A stretch of 64,000 nucleotides of DNA from Gemmatimonadota bacterium (GCA_039591855.1 JBDHCV010000002.1:1-64000), one strand, 5' to 3'. Positions 9,056 through 43,152 are shown, numbered from the stretch's first letter. Translations and numbers: made by a program. Notes: generated from the letters alone by a model not told the origin.

Positions 9056-11104
9056 ATGCACCGCATTCGGACCCTGTTCGCCGCCGCGCTTCTCCTCCTT
9101 CCCGGCCTGCTTTCGGGCCAGGAAGTCCGGCTTGAGGTGGGCCAGACCCGCTCCGGCACGCTCGCCAGCGGCGACACCGCCTCGTTCAACTTCCAGGCCG
9201 GAGACGACTTCCTCCTGTACGGCGAGGTGAACCAGATCAGCGTGGACGTGGTGGTGACGCTGGAGAACGCAGACGGGCAGCGGGTAGGCCCGAGTTGGGA
9301 TGGCCCGGCCCGGGGAGCGGAGGCGTTTTCGACATCCATCGCCGAGGCAGGGCTCTACACCCTGAAGGTGGCGCCCTTCGAGGAGGAGACCGGCGACTTC
9401 GAGGTCACGATCCTCCTGCTCGAGGCTGAGGCCGACGACCCCGAGCGCCTGGCGGATCAGCTCATGTTCGCCTACGACCGTCCGGGGAGTCCGGGAGGGG
9501 CGATCCAAGTCTGGCGGGACGGGCGGACCGTCTTCTCGAAGGCCTATGGCCTGGCGGATCTCGCCCACGGAATCGATTTCCAGACCACGACGGCCACCAA
9601 TATCGGGTCCACGTCCAAGCAGTTCACCGCCTTCGCGGTGCTCTTGGAGCAGGAGCGGGGCAACCTCACTCTGGACGACGACATCCGGGATTACTTCCCG
9701 GAGATCCCGGACTTCGGCGAGACCATCACGATCCGGAACCTCCTCAACCATACCTCGGGGCTTCGGGAATTCCTGAACCTCTGGGCGCTGTCCGGCGCCG
9801 ACACCCGGACCCTGACTCGGGACGACGTGCTCCGGGCCGCCACCCGTCAGCCCGCGCTCCAGAACTCCCCCGGCGCCGAGTTCAACTACAACAACACGGC
9901 CTTCTCCCTGGCCGCGCAGATCGTCGAGAAGACGTCGGAACAGGACTTCGACGACTACATGCGGGAGAACGTGTTCGGTCCGCTGGGGATGAACGACACC
10001 TATGTGCGCATGACGCCCCAGACCATCATACCGGGACGGTCCGACGGGTACACGCCCGGGAGCGAGGGGTGGACCGCGCCCGGTGACCTGGGAGGCGCCG
10101 TTGGCGCGGGCGGGATCTACGCGTCGGTCGAGGACCTGCAGCGCTGGGGGCAGAACCTGCTCTCGCCTACGGTGGGAACGCCCGAGATGGTCGAGGCGAT
10201 GATGACCGAGTTCCAACTCACCGACGGGGAGGGCTCGGGATACGGTCTGGGCCTCTTCATCGACGAGCAGCGGGGACTGAAGCGGGCCCATCACGGGGGC
10301 GCCGACGTCTCCCACCGCTCCATGATCGTCCACTACCCCGAGATCGGGGCCGGCCTCACCGCCCAGAGCAACGCCTCCAACTTCAACAGCGGCGGGACCG
10401 CGTTCCAGCTGGGGGGCGCGTTCTTCGACGACGCCATGGAGCCCGAGGAGGACGACGCGGTGGCCGCCGACGACGGGGACTTCGACCCCGAGACCTGGGA
10501 CCGGGCCGAGTTCGCGGTGGTGGAGGGCACGTACAGCCTCGACCAGGCCCCCCAGATCCAGGCCCGTCTCTGGAACTCCGGGGACAGTCTCTTCGTCCAG
10601 TTGACGAACCAGCCTGCGGCGGAGATCCGTCCCACCTCTCCCACCAGCTTCGAGCTGCTGATCGTGGACGCCCGGATCGTGTTCGAGGTCGAGGACGACG
10701 CCGAGGAGGCGTCCGGCTTCACCCTGTTCCAGAACGGCCAGGAGGTCCACGCCACCCGGGTCGCCGAGGAGGAGGTCGAGGCCGAGGAGGATTGGGAGCC
10801 CACGGCGGAGGAGTTGGCGGCGTTCGAGGGCCGCTATTACAGCGACGAGATCGAGACGTTCTACACCGTCGAGCTGCAGTGGCCCGAGGACGAGGGCGAG
10901 GAAGCGGGTGAGGAGTCCGCCCCGCGCCTGGTGATGAGGCAGCTTCGCATGGGCGAGGTCTCCATGACTCCCACGGAGCGCGATGCGTTCAGGACCGCGA
11001 GAGGGTTCAGCCTGGAGTTCGAACGGGACCGACACGGCGACGTGATCGCGCTCTACGCCGATGCGGGCCGTTCCCGGGACGTCCGGTTCGAGCGGGTGCG
11101 CTGA
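9056..11104 (+). CDS. Serine hydrolase of the beta-lactamase/PBP (class C-like) family, secreted, with a long C-terminal extension
   Basis: Signal peptide, then SxxK active-site motif (IGSTSKQFTA), then a YxN-like NHTSGL motif. The overlapping 726-aa antisense ORF has no motifs. Confidence 0.7.
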   Translation: MHRIRTLFAAALLLLPGLLSGQEVRLEVGQTRSGTLASGDTASFNFQAGDDFLLYGEVNQISVDVVVTLENADGQRVGPSWDGPARGAEAFSTSIAEAGLYTLKVAPFEEETGDFEVTILLLEAEADDPERLADQLMFAYDRPGSPGGAIQVWRDGRTVFSKAYGLADLAHGIDFQTTTATNIGSTSKQFTAFAVLLEQERGNLTLDDDIRDYFPEIPDFGETITIRNLLNHTSGLREFLNLWALSGADTRTLTRDDVLRAATRQPALQNSPGAEFNYNNTAFSLAAQIVEKTSEQDFDDYMRENVFGPLGMNDTYVRMTPQTIIPGRSDGYTPGSEGWTAPGDLGGAVGAGGIYASVEDLQRWGQNLLSPTVGTPEMVEAMMTEFQLTDGEGSGYGLGLFIDEQRGLKRAHHGGADVSHRSMIVHYPEIGAGLTAQSNASNFNSGGTAFQLGGAFFDDAMEPEEDDAVAADDGDFDPETWDRAEFAVVEGTYSLDQAPQIQARLWNSGDSLFVQLTNQPAAEIRPTSPTSFELLIVDARIVFEVEDDAEEASGFTLFQNGQEVHATRVAEEEVEAEEDWEPTAEELAAFEGRYYSDEIETFYTVELQWPEDEGEEAGEESAPRLVMRQLRMGEVSMTPTERDAFRTARGFSLEFERDRHGDVIALYADAGRSRDVRFERVR

Positions 11105-12304: not shown

Positions 12305-12716
12305 GCGCTGCTCTGGGTTCGGTTCATTTGCGGATGTAGGGCATCACCCACGACAGGTTGCCGTGCCTGCGCAACACGCCGGCGGCGCGGGTTCCAGGCC
12401 CACGGGCCCCACGGTTCCTCGGGCCCCAGGCGACCCAGAACGGCCTGCCGTGCCGGGAATCCATACGAAATGTGGTGGATTCTGTCGAGATGGTATGGGT
12501 CCCCGTCCCGGAGGATACCCTGGGAGAAGGGTGAGAGCGAGGTCTTGGACGGTAGTCGTCCTGTAGCGCGTGTGTCTCCATGGAGGCAGAGAAGTGCAAG
12601 GAGTCTGCCTCCTGGTCGGTTCCGGGGCGCGGGCGGGGGTGGTCCGGCCCCGGAGCGCCCCGGGCCGGCTCGAGGGTAGAGCCCGCCCTCGGCGCTGATT
12701 ATCTTGTTCGTTGCTC

Positions 12717-12789
12717 GGGGCCTTAGCTCAGTTGGGAGAGCGCCTGCTTTGCAAGCAGGAGGTCGCCGGTTCGATCCCGGCAGGCTCCA
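12717..12789 (+). tRNA. tRNA-Ala (anticodon TGC)
   Basis: GGGGCCTTAGCTCAGTTGGGAGAGCGCCTGCTTTGCAAGCAGGAGGTCGCCGGTTCGATCCCGGCAGGCTCCA folds as a cloverleaf: 7-bp acceptor stem with one G-U, D-arm GCTCAGTTGGGAGAGC, anticodon loop CTTTGCAAG (TGC), T-arm GCCGGTTCGATCCCGGC. A terminator-like hairpin follows. Confidence 0.9.
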
Positions 12790-12919
12790 CTTTTACAAAG
12801 CTAGGCCCCGTTTGAGGTTACAGCCGCGGACGGGGTCTGGTGTTTCGGCCTGTGAGGCCGATGTGTCCATTTGATGTGTGAAGTGCTCCCCGATCCGCGG
12901 TGGGCTGCACCGTCGCTCT

Positions 12920-13261
12920 CTACTTCAGCTCTCGGAGAACCCTCTCCAGGCTCGGACGCAAGATCGGCACATCCGACACCGCCGTCTCCCAGACGATTTC
13001 GAGATCGACCACGAAGTACTCGTGAATCACCTTGTTGCGCATGCCGGCGATCTGGCGCCAAGGTATCTCGGGGTAGGCGTCGGTAACAGTGCCCGAGACC
13101 TTTCGAGCGGCCTCGCCCAGGACCTGTAGCTGCCGGAGCACGGCGTCCTGCTTCTCCGGATCGGCCCCGAACTGCTCCTCGGACACCCCCTCGACGTACC
13201 GCCCGATGCGATCCACCGCATCGAGCATGTGCTGGACCAGGACCTTGTCAGGATTCGGCAT
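12920..13261 (-). CDS. hepT: HepT-like (DUF86) toxin of a HepT/MntA toxin-antitoxin pair
   Basis: 113 aa with the Rx4HxY motif (RNKVIHEY). Overlaps the upstream nucleotidyltransferase gene by 14 nt. Confidence 0.8.
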   Translation of the reverse strand: MPNPDKVLVQHMLDAVDRIGRYVEGVSEEQFGADPEKQDAVLRQLQVLGEAARKVSGTVTDAYPEIPWRQIAGMRNKVIHEYFVVDLEIVWETAVSDVPILRPSLERVLRELK

Positions 13262-13538
13262 CGAAGAGCACGGTCGCCGAGGCGAGGATCGCCTCCTTCA
13301 TGTGCGGGCTCAGTCCTCGCTCGGTGACCAGGTCCACCTCACGACCGAAGAGCTTGGCAAGCTCGTCTTCGAGCTCGACGAACTCGAAGAACCCCCGACG
13401 TCCGTCATAGTCGACGATCAGATCGATGTCGGAGTCGGGGCGGTCCTCTCCCCTGGCTCCCGATCCGAAGATCCGAAGCCTCCGCACACCATATTCCTGG
13501 CACATACGTGCCAACCCTGATCGGTCGAAGTGAACCAT
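13248..13538 (-). CDS. mntA: MntA-like minimal nucleotidyltransferase antitoxin
   Basis: 96 aa with GSxxxG-type motif IFGSGARGE and DSDIDL, typical of the NTase-fold MntA partner of HepT. Confidence 0.8.
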   Translation of the reverse strand: MVHFDRSGLARMCQEYGVRRLRIFGSGARGEDRPDSDIDLIVDYDGRRGFFEFVELEDELAKLFGREVDLVTERGLSPHMKEAILASATVLFDAES

Positions 13539-13883
13539 GCTCCAATCTCCGCCGCCGGGGGCGATCCGGTCAACCTACAGGCCGGGATCATGCGAACGGT
13601 GGGGCGCTGCTGCCCGGGAGTGGGCCCCTCTCGAATAACTCGGCCCTCGAACGACTTTCACACCTGTATTGGCCTGACGTGACCCCCGAAGTTGCTCCCT
13701 GAAGGTGGACGCCTGCCAACGGGAGAGGGACACTTTCAGGCTCAGTCGAACTCACAAAGGACTGGCTCCGGCAAATCGGGGCGGTTCAGTCCTTCGGACC
13801 GCCGTCACGGCGCCCAAGCAGTGAGCCTGAACGGTCTTCCGAGAACCCCGGGGTAGTTCAGCCCAAGCTCCGGGCCGTCGCCG

Positions 13884-14321
13884 CTATCGCCGCCCACGAA
13901 CGAAGACGTGGTCGAAGTCATCATCGACAACGGTCATTAGCGTCAGCGTATCGCCGCTTAGGTGCACGACCCAGTCCGTATCCAATAGGAGTGGAGGGGA
14001 GTCAGACAGCACAAGAAGCGGCCCTCGCTCCTTAGAGCGGGCTGCCACATCTGTGCCCTGTACCAGAAATGTCCCGCGACCGACCACGGAATCGCCATCG
14101 AAGATAGAGAACTCACGCTCCCCAAAGCGCAGCTGCTGTCCTCGGCCGAGGGTCGTGTTGAAGCCCTCCAAGTGTCCACCGATTGCTGCGGCCCAGTCCC
14201 AATCGCCCACCAGAGAGGTCTCCTCCGATTCCCTCAACTCCCCGCCGCAAGCAACAAGGGCCAAGCCGAAGACCGAAATCAGGGGCCGTCTCAACGGCGA
14301 CTTCATGGCCAGACCCTCCAC
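13884..14321 (-). CDS. Small lipoprotein, putative immunity protein for the upstream HExxH RHS-CT toxin
   Basis: Lipoprotein signal LALVACGGE. Start overlaps the end of the orphan toxin cassette by about 19 nt. Position matches toxin-immunity pairs. Confidence 0.4.
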   Translation of the reverse strand: MEGLAMKSPLRRPLISVFGLALVACGGELRESEETSLVGDWDWAAAIGGHLEGFNTTLGRGQQLRFGEREFSIFDGDSVVGRGTFLVQGTDVAARSKERGPLLVLSDSPPLLLDTDWVVHLSGDTLTLMTVVDDDFDHVFVRGRR

Positions 14322-14830
14322 GAACTCAAGACGCGCTGGGTGTGGACCGCCTGGGCCCTAAGCCAGGGGGGTAGTCCGGCGAGAATGCGGGCCTGATCGG
14401 CGTAGATATCCCTATGCTCACTAACCGCCCTCCCTTGCCTGTGCTGAAGCTCATGCCACGCGGTCATGCCGATATCCACCGCATTGCCTACAGCAAGGTC
14501 GATCCGGACATAACCCCAAGGACCCTGACCGCGATTGCCACCGAGACTACCGGCAGCCACACGGTCGGACCTGTTGGTGAAGACCACGTCCACCTCAAGG
14601 TCTTCGTAGCCTTGGATCGCATCTTTCAATTGCGTCCGGGCTTCGTCGGAGAGTCCCGGTCTAACCAGAACACCCTTGAGGATGTTGATTACCGCACGGC
14701 ATTCGAGATCTTCCCGCCCCTCCTCCTCCTTACACAGCCCAAACGGATCCGAGAAGTTGATCGGATCCCCGCCGGCGTACCCGTAGAGGTTGAGCCCACC
14801 GGCGATCCCAATGGGATCTTGTTGGGTGAA
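14303..14830 (-). CDS. Orphan, 5'-truncated RHS repeat-protein C-terminal cassette: RHS core end followed by an HExxH putative metallopeptidase toxin domain. No ATG; the frame opens straight after a stop.
   Basis: Reverse-strand translation from 14830 gives SIGQFTQQDPIGIAGGLNLYGYAGGDPINFSDPFGLCKEEEG..., the RHS core terminal DPxGL motif, then a CT domain containing MTAWHELQH (HExxH). The track ORF 14303..14629 is the same frame with a TTG pseudo-start. Confidence 0.6.
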   Translation of the reverse strand, partial: FTQQDPIGIAGGLNLYGYAGGDPINFSDPFGLCKEEEGREDLECRAVINILKGVLVRPGLSDEARTQLKDAIQGYEDLEVDVVFTNRSDRVAAGSLGGNRGQGPWGYVRIDLAVGNAVDIGMTAWHELQHRQGRAVSEHRDIYADQARILAGLPPWLRAQAVHTQRVLSSWRVWP

Positions 14831-14836
14831 CTGCCC
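14733..14836. repeat. 104-bp direct repeat copy 1 (encodes the RHS core C-terminal end). About 99% identical to 15841..15944.
   Basis: cacagcccaaacggatccgagaagttgatcggatccccgccggcgtacccgtagaggttgagccc[a/g]ccggcgatcccaatgggatcttgttgggtgaactgccc occurs at both positions with one mismatch. Confidence 0.9.
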
Positions 14837-14982
14837 GATTGACGCACTTCAGCGTAACTCAGCCCGCTAAGTGCCCGACGTTTTTACTCTTGGCCGCTCA
14901 CTTTTTCTGAAATCACTTCGATTTCGCCGATATGCCCTGACGTGGGGCTTTAGGAGCTCTCCGCTGGGCGCGTTTCGGGCCA

Positions 14983-15351
14983 TTATCTACGACCCATCAA
15001 TTTCACCACGGCCGGGATCGAGAATAGCCCCAGCAAGGCGGCCGTGCCCCAACCCAATCCACCCCACCGGACCGACGGAATCGCAACGGCGCTCAGGACT
15101 ACGGCGAGGGTGCACTTCGCAACCAACCACGGGGATCGCCGACTGCCGCTGGCGATGAAGGCGATCGCCGCGAACCCAAACCCAGCCGCAGACACGACGG
15201 CCCTCATAGAGTTCCCGCGGTCACTCAGAGACTCCATGTCGAAGAACACGGGGATGAGAGCGTTAGCCGCCAACCCGATCACGATCGCCGTCATCGCCGA
15301 CGATATCTCTGGCACATCCGCCCCGCGCGAAGTCTCCGGCCCGTGGCTCAT
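14983..15351 (-). CDS. Small integral membrane protein, putative immunity protein for the glycine-zipper RHS-CT toxin
   Basis: 122 aa with 3-4 predicted TM helices. Start overlaps the stop of the upstream cassette by 4 nt (coupled). Confidence 0.4.
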   Translation of the reverse strand: MSHGPETSRGADVPEISSAMTAIVIGLAANALIPVFFDMESLSDRGNSMRAVVSAAGFGFAAIAFIASGSRRSPWLVAKCTLAVVLSAVAIPSVRWGGLGWGTAALLGLFSIPAVVKLMGRR

Positions 15352-16001
15352 CGGTTGACCGCGCCCTGAACCAGTCCGGCGACGAATCCCGCGAGCTCGC
15401 TCCGGCGATTCTCGAACACCTCCATCACCACCCCTCGGAATCGGTCCAGTTCAGCTCTCGGCACGCCTTGCGCCGCGTGGTGAGCCACGAACTCGTCGAG
15501 GTACCCAGGGAACGACTCCAGGGCCTCCCCGGCCACCCCTTCTAGGAGCTGGCCGCCGGCTTCGCCGAGGAATCCAAATACAGCGCCCTGAGCGATGTCA
15601 CCGCCGGACCCAAAGCTGCGCTGATCACCACCTCCCAGGAGCCCCCCGAGTCCTCCGATCGCAGCTTGCCCCATGAGCATCGCCGACTTCCCGACTTTCA
15701 GGGCCGCGAATTGCCCGGAGAGGGCTCCAGTCGCGCCTGCCGTAACAAGTGCATTGCCATTGAACGACCTACTGGCGGCCTGGGACAGGCCCTCGGTAAC
15801 AACCCCGACCACGCCACCGATCACCGCTGGGCACCACGGACACAGCCCAAACGGATCCGAGAAGTTGATCGGATCCCCGCCGGCGTACCCGTAGAGGTTG
15901 AGCCCGCCGGCGATCCCAATGGGATCTTGTTGGGTGAACTGCCCACTCGCCATCCCCCCCGCCGGTGCCGATTCCGGGATCCCCGGGGCCAGCCTCTGCA
16001 T
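15348..16001 (-). CDS. Orphan RHS C-terminal cassette: RHS core end (DPxGL) followed by a glycine-zipper, membrane-active putative toxin domain
   Basis: SGQFTQQDPIGIAGGLNLYGYAGGDPINFSDPFGLC is the RHS core end. The CT is rich in GxxxG repeats (VIGGVVGVV, AIGGLGGLLGGG), typical of pore-forming or ionophore toxin domains. Only about 17 aa precede the core motif, so this is an orphan module. Confidence 0.6.
   Translation of the reverse strand: MQRLAPGIPESAPAGGMASGQFTQQDPIGIAGGLNLYGYAGGDPINFSDPFGLCPWCPAVIGGVVGVVTEGLSQAASRSFNGNALVTAGATGALSGQFAALKVGKSAMLMGQAAIGGLGGLLGGGDQRSFGSGGDIAQGAVFGFLGEAGGQLLEGVAGEALESFPGYLDEFVAHHAAQGVPRAELDRFRGVVMEVFENRRSELAGFVAGLVQGAVNR
15841..15944. repeat. 104-bp direct repeat copy 2 (RHS core end)
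   Basis: See copy 1 at 14733..14836. Confidence 0.9.
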
Positions 16002-16038
16002 TACCCATGCCCGACCTACTCACAACCTGGAGGTCGGC

Positions 16039-16962
16039 ATGGCACACCACACCATGGGCGCATGGGTCGAATCGCACCTAGAATGGCTGGAGGCGAAGGG
16101 ATATGCGAGGGGCACGATCCAATCGCGGCGGGGATACCTTCGGAAGTTCGTCGCTTGGAGCGCTGGACAGGGCGCGACGCAGCCGCATGACTTCGCGCTC
16201 CCGCTCATCGAGGCCTACCGGGTCCACCTCCACACGCTCCGGCGCCGGGACGGTGCTCCGTTGGGCTGGGGTTCGCGGGCGCAACCGCTCCTGGCGATCC
16301 GGGGGCTCTTCCGCTGGCTGACTCTCACCGGGGAGTTGAGCTCGAACCCGGCGGCGGACGTGGAGTTGCCACGTCGGGGACGCCGCCTGCCGCGTCGGGT
16401 GCTCTCCGCGTCCGAGGTCGAGCGGGTCCTCGCCCTGCCGAACATCCGGACCGGGACGGGCCTACGGGACCGCACGATCCTCGAAGTCCTCTACTGGACG
16501 GGGATCCGCCGGGCCGAATGCGCGAACCTCGACCTCAGGGATCTCGACCTGGGCCGTGGCGTCCTGCTGATCCGAGATGGAAAGGGAGCCCGGGACCGGT
16601 TCGTCCCCCTGGGCCGTCGGGTCACCGTGTGGCTGACTCACTACATACGGCGGGGCCGTACGTCCCTCCTCAAGAGCGGCGACCCCGGCGCGCTCTTCCT
16701 ATCCCGGCTGGGAGGCCAGATCAGTGTGAAGCGGCTGGGGGCCATGGTACACGATGCCCTTTGGGCGGCGGGGCTGGGCGGAGGCGGGGCGTGTCACCGG
16801 TTTCGGCACACGGTGGCCACGCTGATGCTGGAAGGCGGCGCGGACATCCGCGACCTGCAGGAACTGCTCGGCCACGAGCAGCTGAACACCACGGCGCTCT
16901 ACGCGCGGGTGTCGATCCAACGACTGCAGGAGGTGCATCGACGCACGCACCCGGCCTGGTGA
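16039..16962 (+). CDS. Site-specific tyrosine recombinase/integrase (XerC/XerD-like)
   Basis: N-terminal SAM-like core-binding domain, catalytic domain with R...HxxR (HRFRHTVAT) and C-terminal LLGHEQLNTTALYARV carrying the Tyr nucleophile. Start at the ATG of MAHHTMGAW; the track ORF begins earlier at a non-ATG codon. Confidence 0.85.
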   Translation: MAHHTMGAWVESHLEWLEAKGYARGTIQSRRGYLRKFVAWSAGQGATQPHDFALPLIEAYRVHLHTLRRRDGAPLGWGSRAQPLLAIRGLFRWLTLTGELSSNPAADVELPRRGRRLPRRVLSASEVERVLALPNIRTGTGLRDRTILEVLYWTGIRRAECANLDLRDLDLGRGVLLIRDGKGARDRFVPLGRRVTVWLTHYIRRGRTSLLKSGDPGALFLSRLGGQISVKRLGAMVHDALWAAGLGGGGACHRFRHTVATLMLEGGADIRDLQELLGHEQLNTTALYARVSIQRLQEVHRRTHPAW

Positions 16963-17063
16963 TCGGGAGGGTTGAAACCGGGGTATTCCTGGGGCGAAAG
17001 GTGGGCCACTTGGGCCGGATAATGGGCCTTTTCAGGGCGGCAGATTCCGGCATCGCGAGGCGG

Positions 17064-17180
17064 CAAGAACGGCAGATCGTGCGCTCTACCAATGAGTTAG
17101 ACGTGTTCTTGCCGTGATTCGGCTTGGCCGATTATCGATTTGCAGGCAGGAGGTCGCCGGTTCGATCCCGGCAGGCTCCA
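17064..17180 (+). repeat. Composite tRNA-derived repeat, copy A. A 9-bp-stem hairpin holds an inverted tRNA D-arm-like segment, then a spacer, then a direct copy of the tRNA-Ala 3' half (17139..17180). attR-like.
   Basis: ggcaagaacggcagatcgtgcgctctaccaatgagttagacgtgttcttgcc is a hairpin (ggcaagaac/gttcttgcc) whose loop resembles the reverse complement of the tRNA D-arm (GCGCTCTCCCAACTGAGCTAAGG). ttgcaggcaggaggtcgccggttcgatcccggcaggctcca matches the tRNA-Ala 3' 42 nt with one mismatch. Confidence 0.8.
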
Positions 17181-17193
17181 CTGGCGTAAGGCG

Positions 17194-17226
17194 AAGCCCC
17201 GTAGTCGTTTAGGCTGCGGGGCTTTT
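17194..17226 (+). terminator. Hairpin plus short T-tract after repeat copy A (intrinsic-terminator-like). A homologous hairpin follows copy C at about 43043..43075.
   Basis: aagccccg...cggggctt 8-bp stem followed by ttctgtg. Confidence 0.35.
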
Positions 17227-17488: not shown

Positions 17489-18877
17489 TCATGACCGCTC
17501 GCCGCGATTGGACCGGAAGAACTCGTGGTAGTGCTCCCGTAGTGCCTCGCGTAGCACGGTCTCGAAGGCGAGCAGCTCGAACCGTTGCTCCTTCCCAAGG
17601 GACTGGAGGAAGGGCGAGCGGTGGAAGCAGCGAAGGAAGATCCGGGGCTGCTCGGACTCCCGCCGAAGGACCAGTCCCGCGCGGAGGTTCACGAGCTCGT
17701 CCGACTCGCACAGCAGATAGATCGGGGTGCCCTCGATGGAGCTGACCTGAGTACCGACGGCCTCCCATGTACCCGGGTCGTCCAGGTCGAGATCGAGACC
17801 AAGAATCGGGACTGAAGTATCGCCCACGTCTGCCTTGAACCGTCGCAGGTGCAGAGTCGCCTCCGGGTCCACTACAACGACGGCCGCCAACTCGGCTCCC
17901 GCCTCCTTCAGCAGGAGTTCGAGAATGGTCTGGGCAAATCGACCGAATCCGGCCAATACGACGATGTCCCGCGCTTCCGTGGCCTCGAAATGAAGAGCGA
18001 GATGGATCTGATAAAGGTACGAAGCCGTCACCTGACGGGTATTGAACCCTTTGGGCACGGTGTGCCCCTTTGCTGCCCGCTCCACCGGGCGGAGCAGGGC
18101 GAGGTCTCCGACGTGGACCGCGATGGGTAGGTCCGGGGCGCCTGACTGGGCCGACCAGGCCAACTCCAGATTCGCCAGGTCGTCGTCCGTGACGACCACG
18201 AGGCCGAGAGCACCCTCGAGATGCAGAGGCGCCAATGCGTCCTCCCCCGCTCCAGACAGTCGGACGGTCTCCACGTCCGTCAGCTCTTCTGACCGATCGA
18301 CCTCGTCGGCCAGGAGGACCGGCACCTCCGGGTCCAACGATCGAATCGCGTTCAGGTAGATCCGTCCGATCGGGCCTCCCCCGACCACCACCATGTGCCC
18401 GCTCGATCGTCTCTTGAACCACTGGGGCCGAACGAGCTTGAGAAACGCCTCGGCGACGGCCGTCGTGGTGAGGGTGGGAGCGAGGAAGTAGGCCAGCCAG
18501 AGCATTCCGCGTCCCGCGGCGGACCCGCCGGTGGGTACCCCCAGGTCCAGCCCTCCGAAGACGAAGAGCCCCCCCGCATAATAGATCCAGGCGATCCACG
18601 GGTCCGAGGCGAGGGCAGGCCGCTCGCTGGTACCGACGCCAGTCGCGAATGCGACACCCGCCAGGACGAATACGGACAGGAAGGCGATCCATCGGAAGGA
18701 GCGCAGTGTCCGGGCGACCCGCTGGAGGGTGAGGCTCACCGTTGCGAAACCGGATTCAAGTGCCGGGAGCCACGCCCGCTGCCTCGCGGACCAGGGCGGT
18801 GACCACGGCTCGCCGGTCCTCGGAAACGGCGGCAATGAACGGTCCCGAGTGGGACACCGGATCCACCGCTCTACCAT
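17489..18877 (-). CDS. Two-TM ion-channel-like membrane protein with a cytoplasmic TrkA-N/RCK (Rossmann) domain and no GYG selectivity filter. The true start is probably downstream of the annotated ATG because the first ~120 nt overlap the IMPase gene.
   Basis: TM1 FRWIAFLSVFVLAGVAFATG, pore-helix-like WIAWIYYAGGLFVFGG, TM2 MLWLAYFLAPTLTTTAVAEAF, then HMVVVGGGPIGRIYLNAI (GxGxxG NAD-binding fold of RCK/TrkA-N). Confidence 0.55.
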   Translation of the reverse strand: MVERWIRCPTRDRSLPPFPRTGEPWSPPWSARQRAWLPALESGFATVSLTLQRVARTLRSFRWIAFLSVFVLAGVAFATGVGTSERPALASDPWIAWIYYAGGLFVFGGLDLGVPTGGSAAGRGMLWLAYFLAPTLTTTAVAEAFLKLVRPQWFKRRSSGHMVVVGGGPIGRIYLNAIRSLDPEVPVLLADEVDRSEELTDVETVRLSGAGEDALAPLHLEGALGLVVVTDDDLANLELAWSAQSGAPDLPIAVHVGDLALLRPVERAAKGHTVPKGFNTRQVTASYLYQIHLALHFEATEARDIVVLAGFGRFAQTILELLLKEAGAELAAVVVVDPEATLHLRRFKADVGDTSVPILGLDLDLDDPGTWEAVGTQVSSIEGTPIYLLCESDELVNLRAGLVLRRESEQPRIFLRCFHRSPFLQSLGKEQRFELLAFETVLREALREHYHEFFRSNRGERS

Positions 18878-19673
18878 CCAGATCGGTCACCATCCCACCC
18901 GCGCCCTTCATGAGCAGGATTCCCGCCGCCAGGTCGTACGGACTGGCGGGCCGCTTGGACCAGAGGTTGACGTAGACAAAGTCCCCACGGGCTGCTTCCA
19001 CCAGGGCCCAGGCAGGGGAGCCTCCCGGGGACCGGACCATCCGGACCGTCTCGGACTCCCAGGCCCGATACAGGCGCCCGACCAGATCCGACCCTCTTCT
19101 GCCCGGGTGGACGTTCACGAGGAGCGGCCCCGTTTCGGCGCCGGGCCCAGGGAGGGTAGCGCCGTAATCCGCCTCCCCGTAGACCGAGAGCTGCAACAAC
19201 CGTGTGGGCCTCCCAGCTGCGGCATAGCCGATCTGGCCGGTGGCCGGGTTGGACACCATTCCGAGTACCGGGACCCCATCTCGGAAGAGGGCGAGGGTGG
19301 TGGAGTACGTTTCGGTCCCGGTGAGAAACGCCCAGGTGCCGTCCACAGGATCCACGGCTAGAGCCATTCCCCGGTCGACCAGAACTCCACCCAGCTCCTC
19401 GCCCACCAGCACGGCATCCGGATCGAAGTCTCCGAGTCTGGAGGTGATCCGCTCCTCCACTCTCGTCTCGAGCTGCGTGACCGGAGATCCGTCGGTCTTA
19501 AGCGACACGTCGGCTTCCCCTCCCCGAGATCCCCGCACGGCTTGCGCTGCCTCGAGAAGGACATGCAGGCCGAACTCGACCCAGGCTGAGCTCACCTCTC
19601 CAGCTCTGGGAGGGGGGGCGTCGCCGGCTCGGAACCGCGCGATCACACTGGACTCGAGGTCGTTCAATGACAT
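18756..19673 (-). CDS. Inositol monophosphatase family protein (IMPase/SuhB/CysQ-like phosphatase)
   Basis: Signature AVDPVDGTWAFLTGTETYSTTLAL (DPxDGT) and C-terminal PYDLAAGILLMKGAGGMVTDLDG (WDxAAG-like). Start at the internal ATG of MSLNDLES, 4 nt after the stop of the upstream gene. Confidence 0.8.
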   Translation of the reverse strand: MSLNDLESSVIARFRAGDAPPPRAGEVSSAWVEFGLHVLLEAAQAVRGSRGGEADVSLKTDGSPVTQLETRVEERITSRLGDFDPDAVLVGEELGGVLVDRGMALAVDPVDGTWAFLTGTETYSTTLALFRDGVPVLGMVSNPATGQIGYAAAGRPTRLLQLSVYGEADYGATLPGPGAETGPLLVNVHPGRRGSDLVGRLYRAWESETVRMVRSPGGSPAWALVEAARGDFVYVNLWSKRPASPYDLAAGILLMKGAGGMVTDLDGRAVDPVSHSGPFIAAVSEDRRAVVTALVREAAGVAPGT

Positions 19674-19677
19674 CGCA

Positions 19678-22278
19678 TCATCCGGTTCGCGAGAGCATTT
19701 CTTCGGCCTCCGAGGATTCCACCTGCCCCCGTTCAGCCAGTTCCTGGATAGCACTCCGAATGAACTCCACCTGTCTACCCGGCACCCGGTTCACCACATC
19801 GGCCGTCAACGGCCACCAGCGAATCTCATCGAACTCGCCGCCGGGGTCGAATGCGGGAAGACCGACCCCCGGGTCGAGAAGAAGGAGGTAGGCCTTGCCC
19901 TCGACCCAGGCGTGGTCTGTTTGCCGTCGGTCGTAGGTGAATCCCTCCGAGACGAGCCAGGTCTCGGCATCTCCGACCGTCACCCCGGTCTCGTCCGCCA
20001 GGACACGGGCCACAGCAGCGGACGGCGCCTCTCCCGGCAGCACGAAGCCCTGCGGAAGGCCGAGATCGGAGCTTCCATCGACTCCTCCGAGGACGATCTC
20101 CAGGCTCCCCGAGGCTGACTCTCTTCGGACCACGAGCACCGCGACCGCCGCGTTGGGCCCCCAGAGCCCCAGGAGCCCACGACCCGCGATGCCCGTGCGG
20201 CCATGCGGGTTCAACGGCCGGCCCTCATCGTCCCGGAACCTCGCCTCAATGGCAGCGAGTGCCTCGGCGATCGATTGGTAGTCTTCCGGGTCGGCCCAGC
20301 CCCCTTCGCCTCGACTCCGGTCGCTCGATGTTACCGACGGGTCCACGTGGTAGGGCGGATCATACTCCTCGCAATCCAGCAACCACGGAGCCTGGTCGAT
20401 GGAGATCCTCTGCCGAGGCGGATACGAAGGCGGGCGCTCACCACGGATCTTCAGGTGGAAGTCGTCCTGGACCAGATCGAACACGAGGGCGTTCACCGAA
20501 CTGAGGGCATACAGGAGGGCCGGCACATCACACTCGCCCCTGTCCCGGCGCTTGTCGAAGCTCAGCGTGTGCAGAGCGTATCGAAGTAGCGCGACACGGT
20601 AGGCCAGCCAGTCGTCCCCCTCCTTGAGCAGGAAATACGACTCCCGTATCCGGCGCACGGCATCCAGGACCTTCCGGAAACGGAGATCCCACTTAACAAA
20701 CCGCAACTCGTCCGGCAGATTGGTCGACTCAGGGGGTATCGCGTGGGCCAGCAGGTAATCTTCCAGCTTATTGAGCCGATCCGCGTCCTCGAGCTCGAAC
20801 TCCTTGCTCATGACGAACTTGACGTCACTCTCCATCTTTGCGAAGTCGAGTTCGAGCGGTGCCTGGCCACTGTGTGTCCAATCGATGAACCATATGTTGT
20901 CGCCGTCATCACAGATGATGTTGGCGAAGTTCAGATCTCCGTGGCTCAAGCTAACGGTGCTCTCCAGGCCGTCCTCGTTGGCGGACACGAGCCGCAGGAG
21001 CTTCGCGAGGCGATCCACGTCGAGTCCCTCGGCGGAGTGGCCGGCCTCGGACACATAGCTCAGGATCAGCTCTGCGTTCTGGCGCATCCATCGGACCTGT
21101 TGCTCCGTATGCAGGCCGAAGGCGCGATAAGGCGCGACCCAACTCCGGTCCGCAGTGTTTCCGTATAGCTTTTCGGAGAGGAGTCCCAGGGACCTGTCCA
21201 GCCGGCGCATGAACCGCTCTAGCCCCGCCTCTCCCTCCGCCTCTTCAAAGGTGTCCTGAAGCGTCTGGGGACGGCCCTCCATGGCGGCGAGATCCATCCC
21301 CACCCCGATCGAATCGCCGAGGGCCACAGGGTAGCCGAAGGTCGGTACGTGCTTCCCGAAGAAGTCCTTTACCTGGTGATACCCGTTCAACTCCCGCCGC
21401 ATCTGCTCGAATGCGTCGATCTTCACGACCAGGGGCTCGGTCCGGGCGTTCCCCTTCCAGCCATCCGCCAGGAACAAGAGGCTGCCGCTGAACCCACCGG
21501 CCAGTGGGCGCAGCCGGGCGCGGCTCCAGTGCATGCAGAGAAGCTCGACGATCCTGCGTTCGGAGTCTTGCAGAGCCTCCAGGGCTTCCGGCGGCTCGAT
21601 GGCCACGGGAGCGAACCCAGAGCCGTCGATGCGTTCCGGATCCAGCCCCACGAAACGTGCGGCCTCTTCCAGATCCAGGATCACGTCGATCCCCGATGCG
21701 GGAAGCGTGTGGCGCAACGCCGCGAGATGGGCCTCTTGGGTGGAACTTCCGACCAGATGCGGACAGACCGCCACTCGCTCACAACGCCAGACGTTCCGCA
21801 GGAAGGACGCGAGGCCCAGAACTCTCCTTTCGGTGTGGCAGCCCACGACCAGGAAGGGAATGTCCCGGACGGCGTCGGCGTCGAGACCCATGTCCTGGAG
21901 TGCCCGACCGAGGCCGTCCGCGGGGATCACTCCCGGTGGAGCGGACACGGTGACGGCTGCTTCGGCCGGGTGGGTCAGAGGATCGATGACGGCGGTGGAC
22001 CCCGGTACCGGAGCCTCACCGGGCTTGGCCTCCGGCTTCAGCCCCGGCTCCAACAGGATCAGCGCAGGGTCGCCGGCGCCTCCCACGCTCTCCGCCACCG
22101 CCTCCAGGAAGACGACCAGGGGTCCATCTCCGAACGTCTTCCCTCTCCCGACCAGTCGCTCGATCTCCCGGTCCCCGACGTTGTCACGGGACGTGCGGTG
22201 GGGATGGTCCGGGCTAAGGAAGTCGGGGGCGAGACCGTCCGCGATCACGATCGCGCGCACGGAGTCTTGGTCTTTCAC
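19678..22278 (-). CDS. 866-aa three-domain fusion protein: N-terminal isochorismatase/cysteine-hydrolase-like domain, central aminoglycoside-phosphotransferase (APH/choline-kinase fold) kinase-like domain, C-terminal NUDIX hydrolase domain
   Basis: N-terminal IPFLVVGCHTERRVLG is a candidate Cys nucleophile region. Central GGFSGSLLFLADGW (Gly-rich loop), VSLSHGDLNFANII (HGDxxxxN catalytic loop) and IWFIDWTHSG (IDW) mark the APH fold. C-terminal GFVLPGEAPSAAVARVLADETGV fits the Nudix box Gx5Ex7REUxEExGU. GTG start overlaps the TGA stop of the upstream K+ channel gene (GTGA coupling). Confidence 0.65.
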   Translation of the reverse strand: MKDQDSVRAIVIADGLAPDFLSPDHPHRTSRDNVGDREIERLVGRGKTFGDGPLVVFLEAVAESVGGAGDPALILLEPGLKPEAKPGEAPVPGSTAVIDPLTHPAEAAVTVSAPPGVIPADGLGRALQDMGLDADAVRDIPFLVVGCHTERRVLGLASFLRNVWRCERVAVCPHLVGSSTQEAHLAALRHTLPASGIDVILDLEEAARFVGLDPERIDGSGFAPVAIEPPEALEALQDSERRIVELLCMHWSRARLRPLAGGFSGSLLFLADGWKGNARTEPLVVKIDAFEQMRRELNGYHQVKDFFGKHVPTFGYPVALGDSIGVGMDLAAMEGRPQTLQDTFEEAEGEAGLERFMRRLDRSLGLLSEKLYGNTADRSWVAPYRAFGLHTEQQVRWMRQNAELILSYVSEAGHSAEGLDVDRLAKLLRLVSANEDGLESTVSLSHGDLNFANIICDDGDNIWFIDWTHSGQAPLELDFAKMESDVKFVMSKEFELEDADRLNKLEDYLLAHAIPPESTNLPDELRFVKWDLRFRKVLDAVRRIRESYFLLKEGDDWLAYRVALLRYALHTLSFDKRRDRGECDVPALLYALSSVNALVFDLVQDDFHLKIRGERPPSYPPRQRISIDQAPWLLDCEEYDPPYHVDPSVTSSDRSRGEGGWADPEDYQSIAEALAAIEARFRDDEGRPLNPHGRTGIAGRGLLGLWGPNAAVAVLVVRRESASGSLEIVLGGVDGSSDLGLPQGFVLPGEAPSAAVARVLADETGVTVGDAETWLVSEGFTYDRRQTDHAWVEGKAYLLLLDPGVGLPAFDPGGEFDEIRWWPLTADVVNRVPGRQVEFIRSAIQELAERGQVESSEAEEMLSRTG

Positions 22279-23648
22279 AGCAGCACTCCCTCGAGTAGCA
22301 GGTCCGAACTCAGGTCACTTCGCTCCGAGGAGACCCGCTTGAGCACGTCGCGGAACTCCGGGTACGTATCGCGTATGGCTCCAAAGTCCCGCTCGCTCAG
22401 TGAGAATGTCTCGCTGAAGGTCAGCGCGCGCACGGAACCGGTACGTTTCTCGTTTAGCAACATGGACAGGTCGCCAAAGTAATCTCCCTCTCGGAGTACG
22501 CCGACCCGGTGTTGCTCCGGGGACAGGACCTCCAACTGGCCCTGGGTCAGGAATTGAATCTCCGCCCCGGCCTCGCCAGCGTGGGAGACCCAACTTCCTG
22601 GGACGAAGACCCGCGGCTGCAGGGCCATGAGGAGGACGTCCCGCAACGGCCGGCTGCATTCCCGGAAGAGTGGTACGTGCCGTGTGAGGTCTCCGGCAAG
22701 ATGGGCCAGCACATCGAGACGGATCGAATCGGGGAGGTCCTGGAGGGCCTCTCGGGCTGAGATCCCCCTGTATCGAGCCCAGACGTAGTCGTGGTAGTCA
22801 CGGACCTGCCGGGTAAGCTCCTGAGGCACTTTCCGGTTCTTCAGGTACTGGTTCACCGAGTCGACACGGTTGCGGAATACGGCCCGTGCCGAATCGATGC
22901 TCGAGACCAGCGCAGCAATATTCCCGATGATGTAAGCCCACAGGGATGCCCCCAGGAGCATGACCGCCATCGCGAAGCCGTACTCCAGGTTGTGCCGGGG
23001 GGTGATGTCGCCGTACCCGACGGCGGTCATGGTCACGATCGCCCAGTAAAGTGAGCGAACGTACTGCGTTCCTCGGGTCTCGCCCACCAGTCCTTCGACG
23101 GCGGCCCATGAATCGGGCGGGAATCCGGCGGCATGGTCCATCAAGAACCACGCGCTCGCCGTCCAGTGGAGGAACAGGGTCGCCACGGCAGCGAGCTTGG
23201 CGATCCGAAGAACGCCGAGGTTCGCCCTTCCCTGGGCCTCCCACCTCCGGAAGATCAGGAACATCCGCGCCACCCGGAGGAGTCGGGGAACCCGGGCCCA
23301 GAGGACGATCGACACCCCCCCAACGGAGACGGACGCCCAGGGGAGGAGTAGCAAGTCGAACGGGATCGATCCGAGGAGATCGACACCGAACATGCCGCCC
23401 CCATACCGCCCTCGCACCGACTCGGGTTCGCTGACCTCGACGCCTCCCGTGCGATAACTCGTGCGGAAGTTGAGAGCGATGTCGGCGAGGAAGAAAGCAT
23501 CGATCAGGTAAAGCCCGATCGATGAAAGGAGGATGGGTCGGTGTACGAAGCCCACCTGGTACGGAACCAACAGGCACGAAACGCCGACCAGAACGAGCGC
23601 GACAAGATCCCATCGGGATCGGAACCGCGACCCCTCAGGGATGATCAC
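22275..23648 (-). CDS. Cyclic-nucleotide-gated potassium channel (voltage-gated-like 6TM K+ channel with a C-terminal cNMP-binding domain, MloK1-like)
   Basis: Selectivity filter TMTAVGYGDITP. C-terminal CNB-domain features LREGDYFGDLSMLL ... RTGSVRA (cAMP/cGMP phosphate-binding-cassette-like). Confidence 0.8.
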   Translation of the reverse strand: MIIPEGSRFRSRWDLVALVLVGVSCLLVPYQVGFVHRPILLSSIGLYLIDAFFLADIALNFRTSYRTGGVEVSEPESVRGRYGGGMFGVDLLGSIPFDLLLLPWASVSVGGVSIVLWARVPRLLRVARMFLIFRRWEAQGRANLGVLRIAKLAAVATLFLHWTASAWFLMDHAAGFPPDSWAAVEGLVGETRGTQYVRSLYWAIVTMTAVGYGDITPRHNLEYGFAMAVMLLGASLWAYIIGNIAALVSSIDSARAVFRNRVDSVNQYLKNRKVPQELTRQVRDYHDYVWARYRGISAREALQDLPDSIRLDVLAHLAGDLTRHVPLFRECSRPLRDVLLMALQPRVFVPGSWVSHAGEAGAEIQFLTQGQLEVLSPEQHRVGVLREGDYFGDLSMLLNEKRTGSVRALTFSETFSLSERDFGAIRDTYPEFRDVLKRVSSERSDLSSDLLLEGVLL

Positions 23649-23667
23649 GCTGGCAACCCCAGGATCC

Positions 23668-24000
23668 TCAGAACCCCTCCAGGGCTTCGGCCTCCGTGCC
23701 GAATACGCTCAAGATCATGCTGAAGCCGGAGATCTCGAACACCTCGTTCACGGTCTCGTTCAGACCGCAAATCCGAAGGTTACCACCGGAGGCCGACATC
23801 TTCTTCGCAGTGCCGAGAAGCACACGGAGTCCTGCGCTGCTGATGTAGTCCAGATCCTGGAAGTTGACGATGATTTTCTTCACGCCCTCAGCCCCCAGCC
23901 GGTCAAGGCTGTCCTGTGCCTCCGGGGCAGTGTTGGTATCGAGGTTCCCCTCGAAGTGGACGACGCTCACGTCGCCCTGATCATTGACCGAGATGTTCAC
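23668..24000 (-). CDS. STAS-domain anti-sigma-factor antagonist (RsbV/SpoIIAA-like)
   Basis: 110 aa. DYISSAGLRVLLG carries the conserved phosphorylatable Ser/Thr region of SpoIIAA-type STAS proteins. Confidence 0.75.
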   Translation of the reverse strand: MNISVNDQGDVSVVHFEGNLDTNTAPEAQDSLDRLGAEGVKKIIVNFQDLDYISSAGLRVLLGTAKKMSASGGNLRICGLNETVNEVFEISGFSMILSVFGTEAEALEGF

Positions 24001-24008
24001 GTGCGATG

Positions 24009-28177: not shown

Positions 28178-28241
28178 TGAATCCTCTTTGGTTGTTGACC
28201 AGGCCGCCGAAGTACATTCTGGTCAGCTCAATGCGTCGTGT

Positions 28242-30101: not shown

Positions 30102-30113
30102 GGTTCGACTCGG

Positions 30114-30515: not shown

Positions 30516-30537
30516 CCAGGCCACTCCGCTATTCGAT

Positions 30538-31827: not shown

Positions 31828-31857
31828 TGTCCGTCCTCTCCGATCTCGGAGCTCGGT

Positions 31858-33297: not shown

Positions 33298-33309
33298 CAG
33301 CGTCCCCCG

Positions 33310-33645: not shown

Positions 33646-33661
33646 GGCCAGGTCCTCCCGC

Positions 33662-34948: not shown

Positions 34949-35136
34949 GCCGACTCCTATCGCGAATTGGCCTCCTGGAGAGGCGCGGGCCGGACTCCCC
35001 GGCTTATAGTCGCCTCACCGTAAGCCCTAGCAACCATCGCGACAAGGCGCCGGCCAAGCGCTTCCCGAGCCGCGGATCAGCGCCGAAAAGAAAGGTGAGG
35101 GGGGTAAACAGACCGTCAGCGGCAGGTTGCTGCGAC

Positions 35137-35247
35137 CGGCAGATCGTGCGCTCTACCAATGAGTTAGACGTGTTCTTGCCTTGATTCGGCTTGGCCGATT
35201 ATCGATTTGCAAGCAGGAGGTCGCCGGTTCGATCCCGGCAGGCTCCA
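35137..35247 (+). repeat. Composite tRNA-derived repeat, copy B (tRNA-Ala 3' half at 35207..35247, exact match, preceded by the conserved hairpin-remnant segment)
   Basis: cggcagatcgtgcgctctaccaatgagttagacgtgttcttgccttgattcggcttggccgattatcgatttgcaagcaggaggtcgccggttcgatcccggcaggctcca. Followed by a terminator-like hairpin (caatgcccag...ctgggcattg). Confidence 0.8.
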
Positions 35248-35692
35248 CTTACATAAAACAATGCCCAGAAATCGCTTATGCGGTTGCTGGGCATTGTCTG
35301 TTTTGCCGCCATGTGGGTGGCGATCACGCTAAGTCATCATTGCGTCATCAATCGAGATCCGTCTCAGGGCCGTCGCCAGCGTCCACCCCGCCCCGTCGTT
35401 CCTCTGTCCCCCAGGACGGCACCTCCCTGAAGTCCTCCGGCCACCATATGACGATTCCCACGCGCACCCTCCGGTTTAGGGTTGCCTGGAAGCGGGCGTG
35501 GGGGGTAGGCGATAGGATGGCGGGATGGGACAGATTACAGCTCGGCCCGGTTGCCCTCCCGCGCCCACAAGCAAGAGGCTCACCGATCCCTCTGGAAGGC
35601 ACGGCTCTTGCGAACTACACCGCACCCAACTGAGGGCGTGCGGCGCACTCTCCCCTCAGCAGTCACACCTTCCCGCCGTACTTGGAGGTTCC

Positions 35693-37137: not shown

Positions 37138-37359
37138 CGGCGGCCTGCACGGCCTCACGCCGCGTCTCCCGTCAGTTCACGCACCGCGTCAGCGAACGAC
37201 TCACGACGGGCCTGCATCCAGAGCTTGATCGCATCGCCACCCTCGCCACACGGGAAGCAATACCAGACGCCCTTGTCGGGATCGATGGCAATGCTTGGGT
37301 CGTGATCGTCATGCAGGATGTCCTGCTAGCAGGATCGCGGTCCCTCCCCTCTGGAATCC

Positions 37360-42716: not shown

Positions 42717-42913
42717 GGCGGGGGGATTCGAGGATTGGCGCAAGATTCGCCTCGCGCAGGTAGGTCCGCAAGTAGTCAGACGCCGGAAGGCGCCGTGGGG
42801 CCGATGCTTCTGACGGGCCCGGAGTCCACGTCCCGGTTGCAGGTACGTACCGGTGTCCACTTGGGCCCGATATTGGGCCCCATCAGGGCTGCAGATCCTG
42901 GCCTCGCCGGGCG

Positions 42914-43029
42914 ACAAGAACGGCAGATCGTGCTCTCTACCAACGAGTTAGACGTGTTTTGCCGTGATTCGGACTAACCGATTATCGATTTGCAGGCAGG
43001 AGGTCGCCGGTTCGTTCCCGGCAGGCTCC
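42914..43029 (+). repeat. Composite tRNA-derived repeat, copy C (tRNA-Ala 3' half at 42988..43029 with 2 mismatches). Flanks are also homologous to copy A over about 75 bp on each side.
   Basis: gacaagaacggcagatcgtgctctctaccaacgagttagacgtgttttgccgtgattcggactaaccgattatcgatttgcaggcaggaggtcgccggttcgttcccggcaggctcca. Upstream gtgtccacttgggcccgatattgggcc... and the downstream hairpin aagccccgcagtcggttcggctgcggggctt match the copy A flanks. Confidence 0.8.
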
Positions 43030-43152
43030 ACTGCCCCAAGTCCAAGCCCCGCAGTCGGTTCGGCTGCGGGGCTTCGGTATTCTGGACACGGACCGTGCCA
43101 GAGAGTGTGTCGGATTCCCCGAGAATCCGGTCCCTACCGCCTCTTCGAGGCC

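Follow-up and report, generated by a model that had tools for sequence, protein, structure and literature searches.

A stretch of 64,000 nucleotides from a Gemmatimonadota bacterium (GCA_039591855.1, JBDHCV010000002.1:1-64000; hereafter the window, with positions counted from its first letter) contains at 12791-17182 an islet which is probably a small integrative island of a clade of rhs-associated tyrosine integrases, having a tRNA gene as its target and RHS toxin tips, immunity genes and a toxin-antitoxin (TA) pair as its cargo. Judged from the compared loci, the link of this clade to RHS tips is a family trait that extends across phyla, the predicted usual target being the rhs gene itself. 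On balance we also favour a wider reading, in which the clade belongs to cross-phylum elements made of a primase and a tyrosine integrase, many of which would integrate at the codons of the rhs core-end (YV(A/G)NDP or TQEDPIG), bring a tip and its immunity gene in frame and demote the resident tip, the islet being a primase-less, tRNA-retargeted offshoot that carries tips. The initial annotation, made from the sequence of the window, had pointed to the association of orphan RHS tips with a tyrosine recombinase as worth examining; the association is indeed present, but it is not special to this locus.

The only tRNA gene in the window is that of tRNA-Ala(TGC) (12717-12790, plus strand; ARAGORN, and Rfam tRNA with 70.6 bits). 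Its part from the first base of the anticodon loop to the 3' end (12748-12791) is repeated at 17139-17182 with 43 of 44 positions identical, the two copies being spaced by 4391 bp from start to start and enclosing an islet of ~4.3-4.4 kb with 7 genes, namely HepT, MntA, two pairs of an RHS tip and a small gene, and a tyrosine integrase (Table 1). A 32-nt tRNA probe gives 4 matches in the 64 kb, as against 0 in 100 shuffles, the distal ones standing at 35216 and 42999. The guanine plus cytosine content (GC) of the islet is 0.639 versus 0.675-0.677 in the flanks, with a minimum of 0.565 at 14.6-15.0 kb, and GC at third codon positions (GC3) is 0.68-0.78 in the cargo genes versus 0.86 +/- 0.03 in 18 flank genes, with 0.83 for HepT and the integrase. 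This dip is real and modest, and it is also present across the next 18 kb. The components named by the initial annotation (tRNA-Ala, a MntA/HepT pair, two RHS cassettes and a XerC/D-like integrase) were all recovered in place, and its claims of a lower GC and of a recombinase adjoining an attR-like repeat were borne out as well, the former within the limits just given.

Concerning the integrase, its best NCBIfam model is XerC PRK01287, with 335 bits versus a cut-off of 371 bits, hence we call it Xer-like and not a housekeeping XerC. The candidate catalytic residues are present (R in GIRRAE, K182, H253/R256, H279 and Y288). A survey of the family comprised 77 loci of integrase relatives. The best relatives from species-representative genomes reach only 42-54% identity, almost none of them lies near a tRNA, and they belong to Gemmatimonadota, Acidobacteriota, Verrucomicrobiota, Actinomycetota, Myxococcota, Sphingomonadales, Caulobacterales and others; against clade members as a whole, the window integrase shows 42-72% identity over the full length. 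A primase match was found in 69 of the 77 loci, mostly a protein of ~900-1040 aa with a CHC2 zinc finger and a Toprim domain, encoded directly upstream of the integrase and co-oriented with it. No primase adjoins the window integrase, the only trace in the window being a fragment of 51 aa at 37164-37316, in another unit. RHS core-end motifs are present in the flanks of at least 28/77 loci (20 loci at a stricter threshold), which places these integrases within arrays of rhs genes; Pfam further identifies RHS-repeat genes upstream in L034, a locus without a core-end flag, and in L050. Forty-five of the 46 core-end matches lie on the integrase strand, a bias that serves as an internal control, so that a background rate is not needed.

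The junctions can be read in three of these loci. In the complete chromosome of a Novosphingopyxis (L046), a 6512-bp unit that contains a tip, an immunity gene, a primase and an integrase lies twice in tandem inside an rhs gene; the left, unit-unit and right junctions share GTCGCAAACGATCC, a 14-bp repeat which encodes the VANDP of the core-end (...YVANDP...), and a different (old) tip with a small gene stands after the right junction (attR). This type of layout recurs in L056, where TGTCGGCAATGATCC is accompanied by a homologous arm, and in L012 (Gemmatimonadales), at ACGCAGGAAGACCCCATCGGA, which encodes TQEDPIG. As read from the sequences, these junctions bear the marks of an element that inserted site-specifically in the rhs core-end and displaced the resident tip, and it is on these three loci, together with the family-wide statistics, that our reading of an integrase-driven tip displacement is based. 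The stubs in the window begin at most 3 codons from the crossover position of L012, which suggests that they arose in an ancestral rhs locus through site-specific displacement. The islet itself is flanked by the tRNA 3' part and not by a short repeat inside an rhs core-end, and its tips are divergent from the integrase.

Not every family member sits in an rhs gene, the other contexts including a relaxase/coupling-protein element and apparently ordinary genes. In the former (L039, 163-5085) a type IV coupling protein and a TrwC relaxase are encoded directly upstream of the primase-integrase pair, so that some members look conjugative or mobilisable. It should also be noted that primase-integrase units of 6.5-8.4 kb occur as direct duplications with 99.6-100% identity in L046 (4948-17986), L065, L082, L029, L074, L051 and L072, some of these assemblies being built from short reads, in which repeats of this kind are expected to collapse; the duplications may reflect tandem multimers, circles that replicate, or the assembly itself.

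Tips, small genes and TA modules like those of the islet recur beside related integrases. L089 (58% integrase identity) has an array of 10 stubs with a primase and the integrase in its middle, and its cargo includes a tip-2-like gene with an imm2-like one, a tip-1-like gene (54%) with an imm1-like one, and ParE and HicAB modules. L090 (64%) has a tip-2-like and an imm2-like gene directly before the integrase, without primase, and L023 combines six stubs, a primase, an integrase and a MntA/HepT pair. The closest relative, L092/L093, shares 72% integrase identity and derives from two sequencing runs, of metagenomes other than that of the window. Here the integrase start is preceded at ~90 bp by an RHS core-end stub on the opposite strand, and the arm is conserved downstream; in L093 the arm is followed by a tRNA-like 3' half with TAC in its anticodon loop. 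Because the same design is found in L092/L093, the combination of tips, divergent integrase, arm and tRNA half should be regarded as a conserved element design and not as a chance mosaic, the nearest relatives of which lie in rhs arrays. The initial view of the islet as a compact mobile or once-mobile element gains independent support from this three-part design, shared at 72% integrase identity by loci of unrelated samples.

The stop codon of the integrase lies 177 bp ahead of the distal tRNA repeat, and the arm that fills this interval is conserved over 17006-17138 in the third and over 17067-17138 in the second of three copies in the window (rep3 and rep2, see below), as well as in L092/L093; in more distant integrase relatives similarity to the arm was sought and none was found. 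A transfer-messenger RNA (tmRNA) or another structured RNA was considered as the source of the repeats formed by arm and tRNA half, and was rejected: ARAGORN finds no tmRNA and Rfam only tRNA, while sub-threshold Rfam matches in the arm repeats are driven by the terminator hairpin. An inverted tRNA 5' fragment, which the reverse complement TAACTCATTGGTAGAGCGCACG resembles by eye, was set aside as no tRNA model matches it. A crossover within the arm after ...GAGTTA, where L092 diverges, was discarded as well, L093 continuing with the same integrase into arm and tRNA half. In L092 an IS110-like transposase gene (1209-1726) is inserted directly after ...CTCTACCAGTGAGTTAG in the arm, which is uninterrupted in L093. 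Scans of a metagenome collection without the source samples gave 0 matches to the arm pattern and no relatives of a flanking protein of 388 aa, and contigs with diverged alleles of the flank gene (P0244, P0245) end short of the tRNA. The viral contigs of IMG/VR lack the arm pattern and contain integrase relatives of no more than 35% identity.

The RHS cassettes are tied together by a direct repeat (14732-14836 and 15840-15944) of 99% identity amid unrelated DNA; the initial annotation was right about this stub repeat, except for its length, which is 105 bp and not 104 bp. Both tips begin with GQFTQQDPIGIAGGLNLYGYAGGDPINFSDPFGL and match TIGR03696 (3.4e-11 and 1.6e-10) above the curated cut-off, over the last ~35 model positions only, and neither has a match to the RHS_repeat Pfam, the stubs being the RHS core-end (DPxGL) without the YD-repeat shell. 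As the cassettes had been described as orphans, it is relevant that the 64-kb window has no RHS-repeat gene and no third core-end anywhere. With no RHS shell and no secretion domain, the tips would not be deliverable in the present host.

Tip 1 has stop codons just upstream and no start codon before 14629 (open reading frame (ORF) list and translation), hence it appears to be a silent cassette. Its toxin domain is rare, with 5 cluster representatives among 1.84 billion, always C-terminal and in 2/5 behind RHS core sequence; the H, E and H of the HExxH motif are invariant among the 5. Homologues with RHS core sequence upstream are P0249 and P0250, and tip-1-like toxins are also present in L009 and L089. 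For tip 2 an in-frame ATG, annotated by gene callers, stands 18 codons ahead of the stub, and the toxin part of this tip contains 20% Gly, 12 GxxxG motifs and one hydrophobic segment; it is probably a membrane-active toxin, matched with a predicted immunity protein that would be embedded in the membrane. At E <= 0.001 tip 2 has 736 homologues, the best 120 of which are mostly of ~200 aa with the same core-end at the start, several named ones being from Gemmatimonadota. Those behind RHS core-ends show 36-48% identity over 73-91% of the query, and in L009 and L010 the short tip-2-like genes stand as ordinary orphans behind long rhs genes. An imm1 homologue, 30% identical, stands behind the tip-1-like toxin in L089, and imm2 homologues, 33-34% identical, behind the tip-2-like toxin in L089 and L090; the same types of pair standing side by side in these loci support a cognate pairing of toxin and small gene. 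For none of the four proteins did Pfam, NCBIfam, PADLOC or PDB sequences give a match to a toxin or immunity family beyond the core-end.

The MntA and HepT genes overlap by 14 nt, both proteins pass the Pfam cut-offs, MntA matches PADLOC PDC-S09 (1.6e-29), and a nucleotidyltransferase motif of GSx10DxD type and the Rx4-6H motif of HEPN proteins can be read in the translations. The pair thus resembles the MntA/HepT type VII TA systems in its adjacent, overlapping genes for a minimal nucleotidyltransferase and a HEPN protein with the family motifs, and differs from them in scoring under the NCBI equivalog cut-offs, its activity being putative. A deletion of 87 bp (13488-13574; L002, one metagenome-assembled genome (MAG)) removes the MntA start region.

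Table 1. Coordinates of the features of the islet and of the related arm and tRNA-half copies in the window.
Feature	Position	Strand	Characteristics and evidence
Intact tRNA-Ala(TGC)	12717..12790	+	Left junction (attL) of the islet; ARAGORN, Rfam, repeat search
HepT-like HEPN RNase toxin, 113 aa	12920..13261	-	Pfam PF01934 1.1e-28; RNKVIHEY (Rx4HxY) motif
MntA-like nucleotidyltransferase antitoxin, 96 aa	13248..13538	-	NTP_transf_2 7.5e-15, Polbeta 3.6e-14; GSGARGEDRPDSDID motif
Putative immunity protein 1 (imm1), 140 aa	13884..14306	-	Lipoprotein-type N-terminus (MKSPLRRPLISVFGLALVAC); directly after tip 1
RHS tip 1	14303..14836	-	35-codon core-end stub 14732-14836 and ~140-aa toxin domain with HExxH; TIGR03696 3.4e-11
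Putative immunity protein 2 (imm2), 122 aa	14983..15351	-	Membrane protein; four hydrophobic segments (hydropathy)
RHS tip 2, 217 aa from ATG at 16001 (JGI: 201 aa)	15348..16001	-	Stub 15840-15944; TIGR03696 1.6e-10
Tyrosine integrase, 307 aa	16039..16962	+	Divergent from tip 2; Phage_integrase Pfam 1.2e-34
Integrase-proximal arm	16963..17138	+	Two CGGCAGAT direct repeats, 10-bp inverted repeat
tRNA-Ala 3'-part copy (attR-like)	17139..17182	+	43/44 identical; followed by a hairpin at 17194-17224
rep2, second arm and tRNA-half copy	35134..35249	+	97% identical to rep1 over 116 bp; no integrase adjoining
rep3, third arm and tRNA-half copy	42857..43074	+	87% identical to rep1 over 219 bp; T-loop mutation; no integrase adjoining

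The islet is the tRNA-proximal of three units in tandem, the others ending at 35.2 and 43.0 kb. All three end in the same arm and tRNA half (rep1, in the islet, rep2 and rep3), with a hairpin after each copy; the arm stretch common to the three copies measures 72 bp and that common to rep1 and rep3 133 bp. Only rep1 has an adjoining integrase, rep2 abutting amtB/glnA and rep3 a Ser/Thr kinase gene with host-like GC3. We read the three units as a tandem accretion of related elements at one tRNA, in which the two distal ones would have lost their integrases.

As to the contents of the distal units, the genes at 17489-22278 (minus strand) encode a TrkA-N protein, an inositol-monophosphatase-like protein and a kinase-like protein of 866 aa with TCAD9 and NUDIX domains, a set that resembles the nucleoside triphosphate-dependent 'ternary' conflict systems known from comparative genomics. 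The rest of the 18-kb second unit (22275-35014, minus strand) has a uniformly lower GC3 of 0.76-0.81 and holds a cyclic nucleotide (cNMP)-gated ion channel, partner-switching genes (SpoIIE/HATPase/STAS), a protoglobin-STAS and a Cache-HAMP-STAS protein, as well as a Band 7 protein, glutamine synthetase and an ammonium transporter, which is odd cargo for an island. In the third unit, the primase fragment at 37164-37316 (minus strand) shares 41% identity with the L046 primase in the CHC2 zinc-finger region (E = 5e-6 within the window); a primase-integrase element in the opposite orientation has probably left it behind. The fragment is followed at 37360-42917 (minus strand) by two paralogous Ser/Thr kinases of ~930-960 aa with PD40/beta-propeller C-termini, whose host-like GC3 of 0.85-0.87, in a unit bounded by tRNA-half repeats, is hard to square with a foreign origin.

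Contigs of the same population, obtained by exact-protein look-up from the JGI metagenomes 3300041074-87 and as three NCBI MAGs, are > 99.9% identical to the window. By best hits the lineage is probably Gemmatimonadota, and no universal marker gene is present in the window. In L003 and L005, which come from one assembly, 14836 is joined to 15840, the 1108 bp between the stubs being lost, and the start codon and stub of tip 2 are thereby fused to the tip-1 toxin in an ORF of 196 aa (180 aa in the JGI call), after which only the first small gene (imm1) follows; this deletion would make the silent tip 1 translatable. L007 lacks the 32 nt (12716-12747) between two TGCT microhomologies, so that positions 1-31 of tRNA-Ala are lost and the 3' part is kept, and either this tRNA-Ala copy is dispensable or the assembly is in error. 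A deletion of 160 bp at 10847-11006 (L001, one MAG) shortens a beta-lactamase-family gene.

The mechanism that we propose is as follows. The island was probably inserted into tRNA-Ala(TGC) by its own tyrosine integrase, we infer, through a crossover at or near the anticodon loop in which the island would supply a replacement for the 3' half of the tRNA, and it may be mobile at present. Its cargo would be a fragment of an rhs tip array, consisting of two toxin-tip/immunity cassettes, each with a 35-codon stub, together with MntA/HepT. In relatives of the clade, which usually carry a large primase, integration would put a new tip and its immunity gene in frame with the resident rhs, the resident old tip being pushed downstream as an orphan; RHS tips would thus ride with the integrase because the relatives integrate into rhs arrays and bring tips. 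The lineage of the window and of L092/L093 would have lost the primase and target the tRNA instead. Regarding the likely selected functions, the two small genes may provide immunity against the RHS toxins of neighbours, the TA pair may stabilise the island or give defence, and the tips may be a store that is reshuffled through the 105-bp stubs.

Several observations speak against this account. In 27/28 other loci the tips are co-oriented with the integrase, and in the islet they are divergent from it. No excisionase or recombination directionality factor was recognised, and no primase either. The islet is present in 6/6 population contigs that reach the site. The arm could belong to another history, since rep2 and rep3 have it without an integrase. 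The stub deletion of L003/L005 derives from a single assembly and could be an artefact of repeat collapse. The scores of HepT_toxin (44 bits) and MntA (56.4 bits) stay under the 60-bit equivalog cut-offs of NCBIfam, and position and co-occurrence are all that the predicted immunity role of the small genes is read from.

The explanations that compete with an integrase-inserted island overlap partly with it and with one another. The tips could form a classical store of silent cassettes, serving a full-length rhs elsewhere in the genome through homologous recombination in the core-end, as in Salmonella and E. coli, so that integrase and tRNA would explain their arrival only. Such a store fits with the 34-35-aa core-end that ends long RHS proteins or fragments with 88-97% identity in L009, L010, P0098 and P0029, and with orphan arrays downstream of full-length rhs being common in the lineage; we hold it possible though doubtful, as there is no full-length rhs within 64 kb and the tip-1 domain occurs only in short proteins among the 1.84 billion representatives. 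That the islet is a dead remnant, i.e. one or more decayed old insertions at tRNA-Ala, immobile, with tips that are pseudogene debris and selection acting perhaps on the TA pair only, would account for the absence of a usable start codon in tip 1 and of a full-length rhs, primase or excisionase in the window, for an islet in every population contig that reaches the site, for the neighbour units (E2 and E3) already devoid of integrases and for the small deletions segregating among the population contigs (one of 87 bp at the 5' end of MntA, another of 32 bp in the tRNA). We consider it unlikely, because intact ORFs encode the integrase, HepT, MntA, tip 2 and the two small proteins, with their motifs kept, the att repeats agree at 43/44 positions, the stubs are 99% identical over 105 bp amid differing surroundings, and the design is kept in a lineage whose integrase has diverged by 28%.

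Tip 2 could instead be toxic inside its producer when translated from its own ATG, be checked by the membrane protein and stabilise the island together with MntA/HepT by intracellular addiction, as for the orphan Rhs of Salmonella (PMC7043789). The annotated in-frame ATG of tip 2, a deletion variant that keeps the tip-2 start and swaps in tip 1, and the TA modules (ParE, HicAB, MntA/HepT) interspersed in related arrays agree with this; on the other side, the intergenic space to the integrase is just 37-100 bp, and tip 1 is untranslatable in the main haplotype, so that we find addiction quite unlikely. The integrase might also act on the stubs themselves and capture, delete or reorder cassettes as a platform of the rAID or integron type, the tRNA repeats being older, unrelated insertions. 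The crossover sequence inside the core-end codons of relatives, the start of the window stubs within 3 codons of the L012 site and the natural stub-to-stub deletion are in line with such a platform, and precedents exist in the recombinase-linked orphan immunity arrays of Bacteroidales (10.1101/471110) and in XerC/D beside polyimmunity loci (PMC3482391). However, the arm beside the integrase is continued by a tRNA half in the window as in L093, which points to tRNA specificity, 105 bp at 99% identity suffice for homologous recombination, so that the deletion needs no integrase, and the array is divergent from the integrase and has two cassettes only; the platform is therefore very unlikely in our estimation.

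Compared with described systems, the islet is a combination of known kinds, i.e. a tRNA island, an orphan rhs array and a recombinase-linked immunity locus. With tRNA-targeting islands and CIME-type arrays it shares ends made of a tRNA and a repeat of its 3' part, the integrase at the junction, an atypical composition, accessory cargo and tandem units without integrase; it differs from such islands in being very small, in having no recognised excisionase and in an integrase that is Xer-like, not P4- or lambda-like, and whose relatives mostly do not target tRNAs. Orphan rhs-CT/immunity arrays with 'C-terminal displacement' are known from Enterobacteria (PMC2935791; PMC3150448), the displacement having been proposed by Jackson et al. 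2009. The islet resembles them in the DPxGL stub followed by a variable toxin and a small immunity gene, in the repetition of the stubs and in the existence of a natural recombinant, whereas its tips are not downstream of a full-length rhs (64 kb) and lie on a tRNA island with an integrase.

The rAID-1 loci of Ross et al. (10.1101/471110) are defined by a 5' XerD-like recombinase at least 44% identical to BF9343_RS08045, whose close homologues are reported only from Bacteroidales. Common to both are the Xer-like recombinase beside short orphan polymorphic-toxin genes, a skewed GC and repeats between cassettes. However, rAID genes, up to 31 of them, are co-oriented downstream of the recombinase and mostly encode immunity only, whereas the six cargo genes of the islet are upstream of the integrase on the opposite strand, keep the toxin tips, include two cassettes and belong to a tRNA island of a high-GC organism. 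Zhang et al. 2012 (PMC3482391) observed XerC/D beside polyimmunity loci and proposed that the recombinase helps to accumulate immunity genes. The likeness lies in a Xer-type recombinase with clustered immunity genes; their paper has no att sites, primase partner or toxin-gene insertion, while att-type repeats are readable here. Finally, the wider family resembles P4-type satellites and small integrative mobilisable elements in its Zn-finger/Toprim primase of ~900-1040 aa with an integrase, its small cargo, its site-specific insertion and the replacement of the displaced 3' part of the target; in contrast to these satellites, the islet has no primase, its relatives in IMG/VR do not exceed 35% identity, and the usual target of the family is a protein-coding toxin gene and not a tRNA. 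We met with no account of rhs core-ends that contain an inserted primase-integrase element in the literature searched, a coverage that is incomplete and no proof of novelty.

Rhs and other polymorphic toxins diversify by swapping their C-terminal tips, and the spent tips accumulate as orphans, the way in which new tips arrive being an open point. The islet leads to a concrete candidate, namely an integrase clade which carries tips as cargo and which, in relatives, sits in rhs genes with readable att-type junctions. If this is true, there would be a dedicated, integrase-driven route for C-terminal displacement and for the formation of orphan Rhs arrays, for both of which homologous recombination has hitherto been held responsible. 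To its host the islet probably offers a portable set of immunity genes, comparable to the rAID loci of gut bacteria, but in a high-GC environmental lineage.

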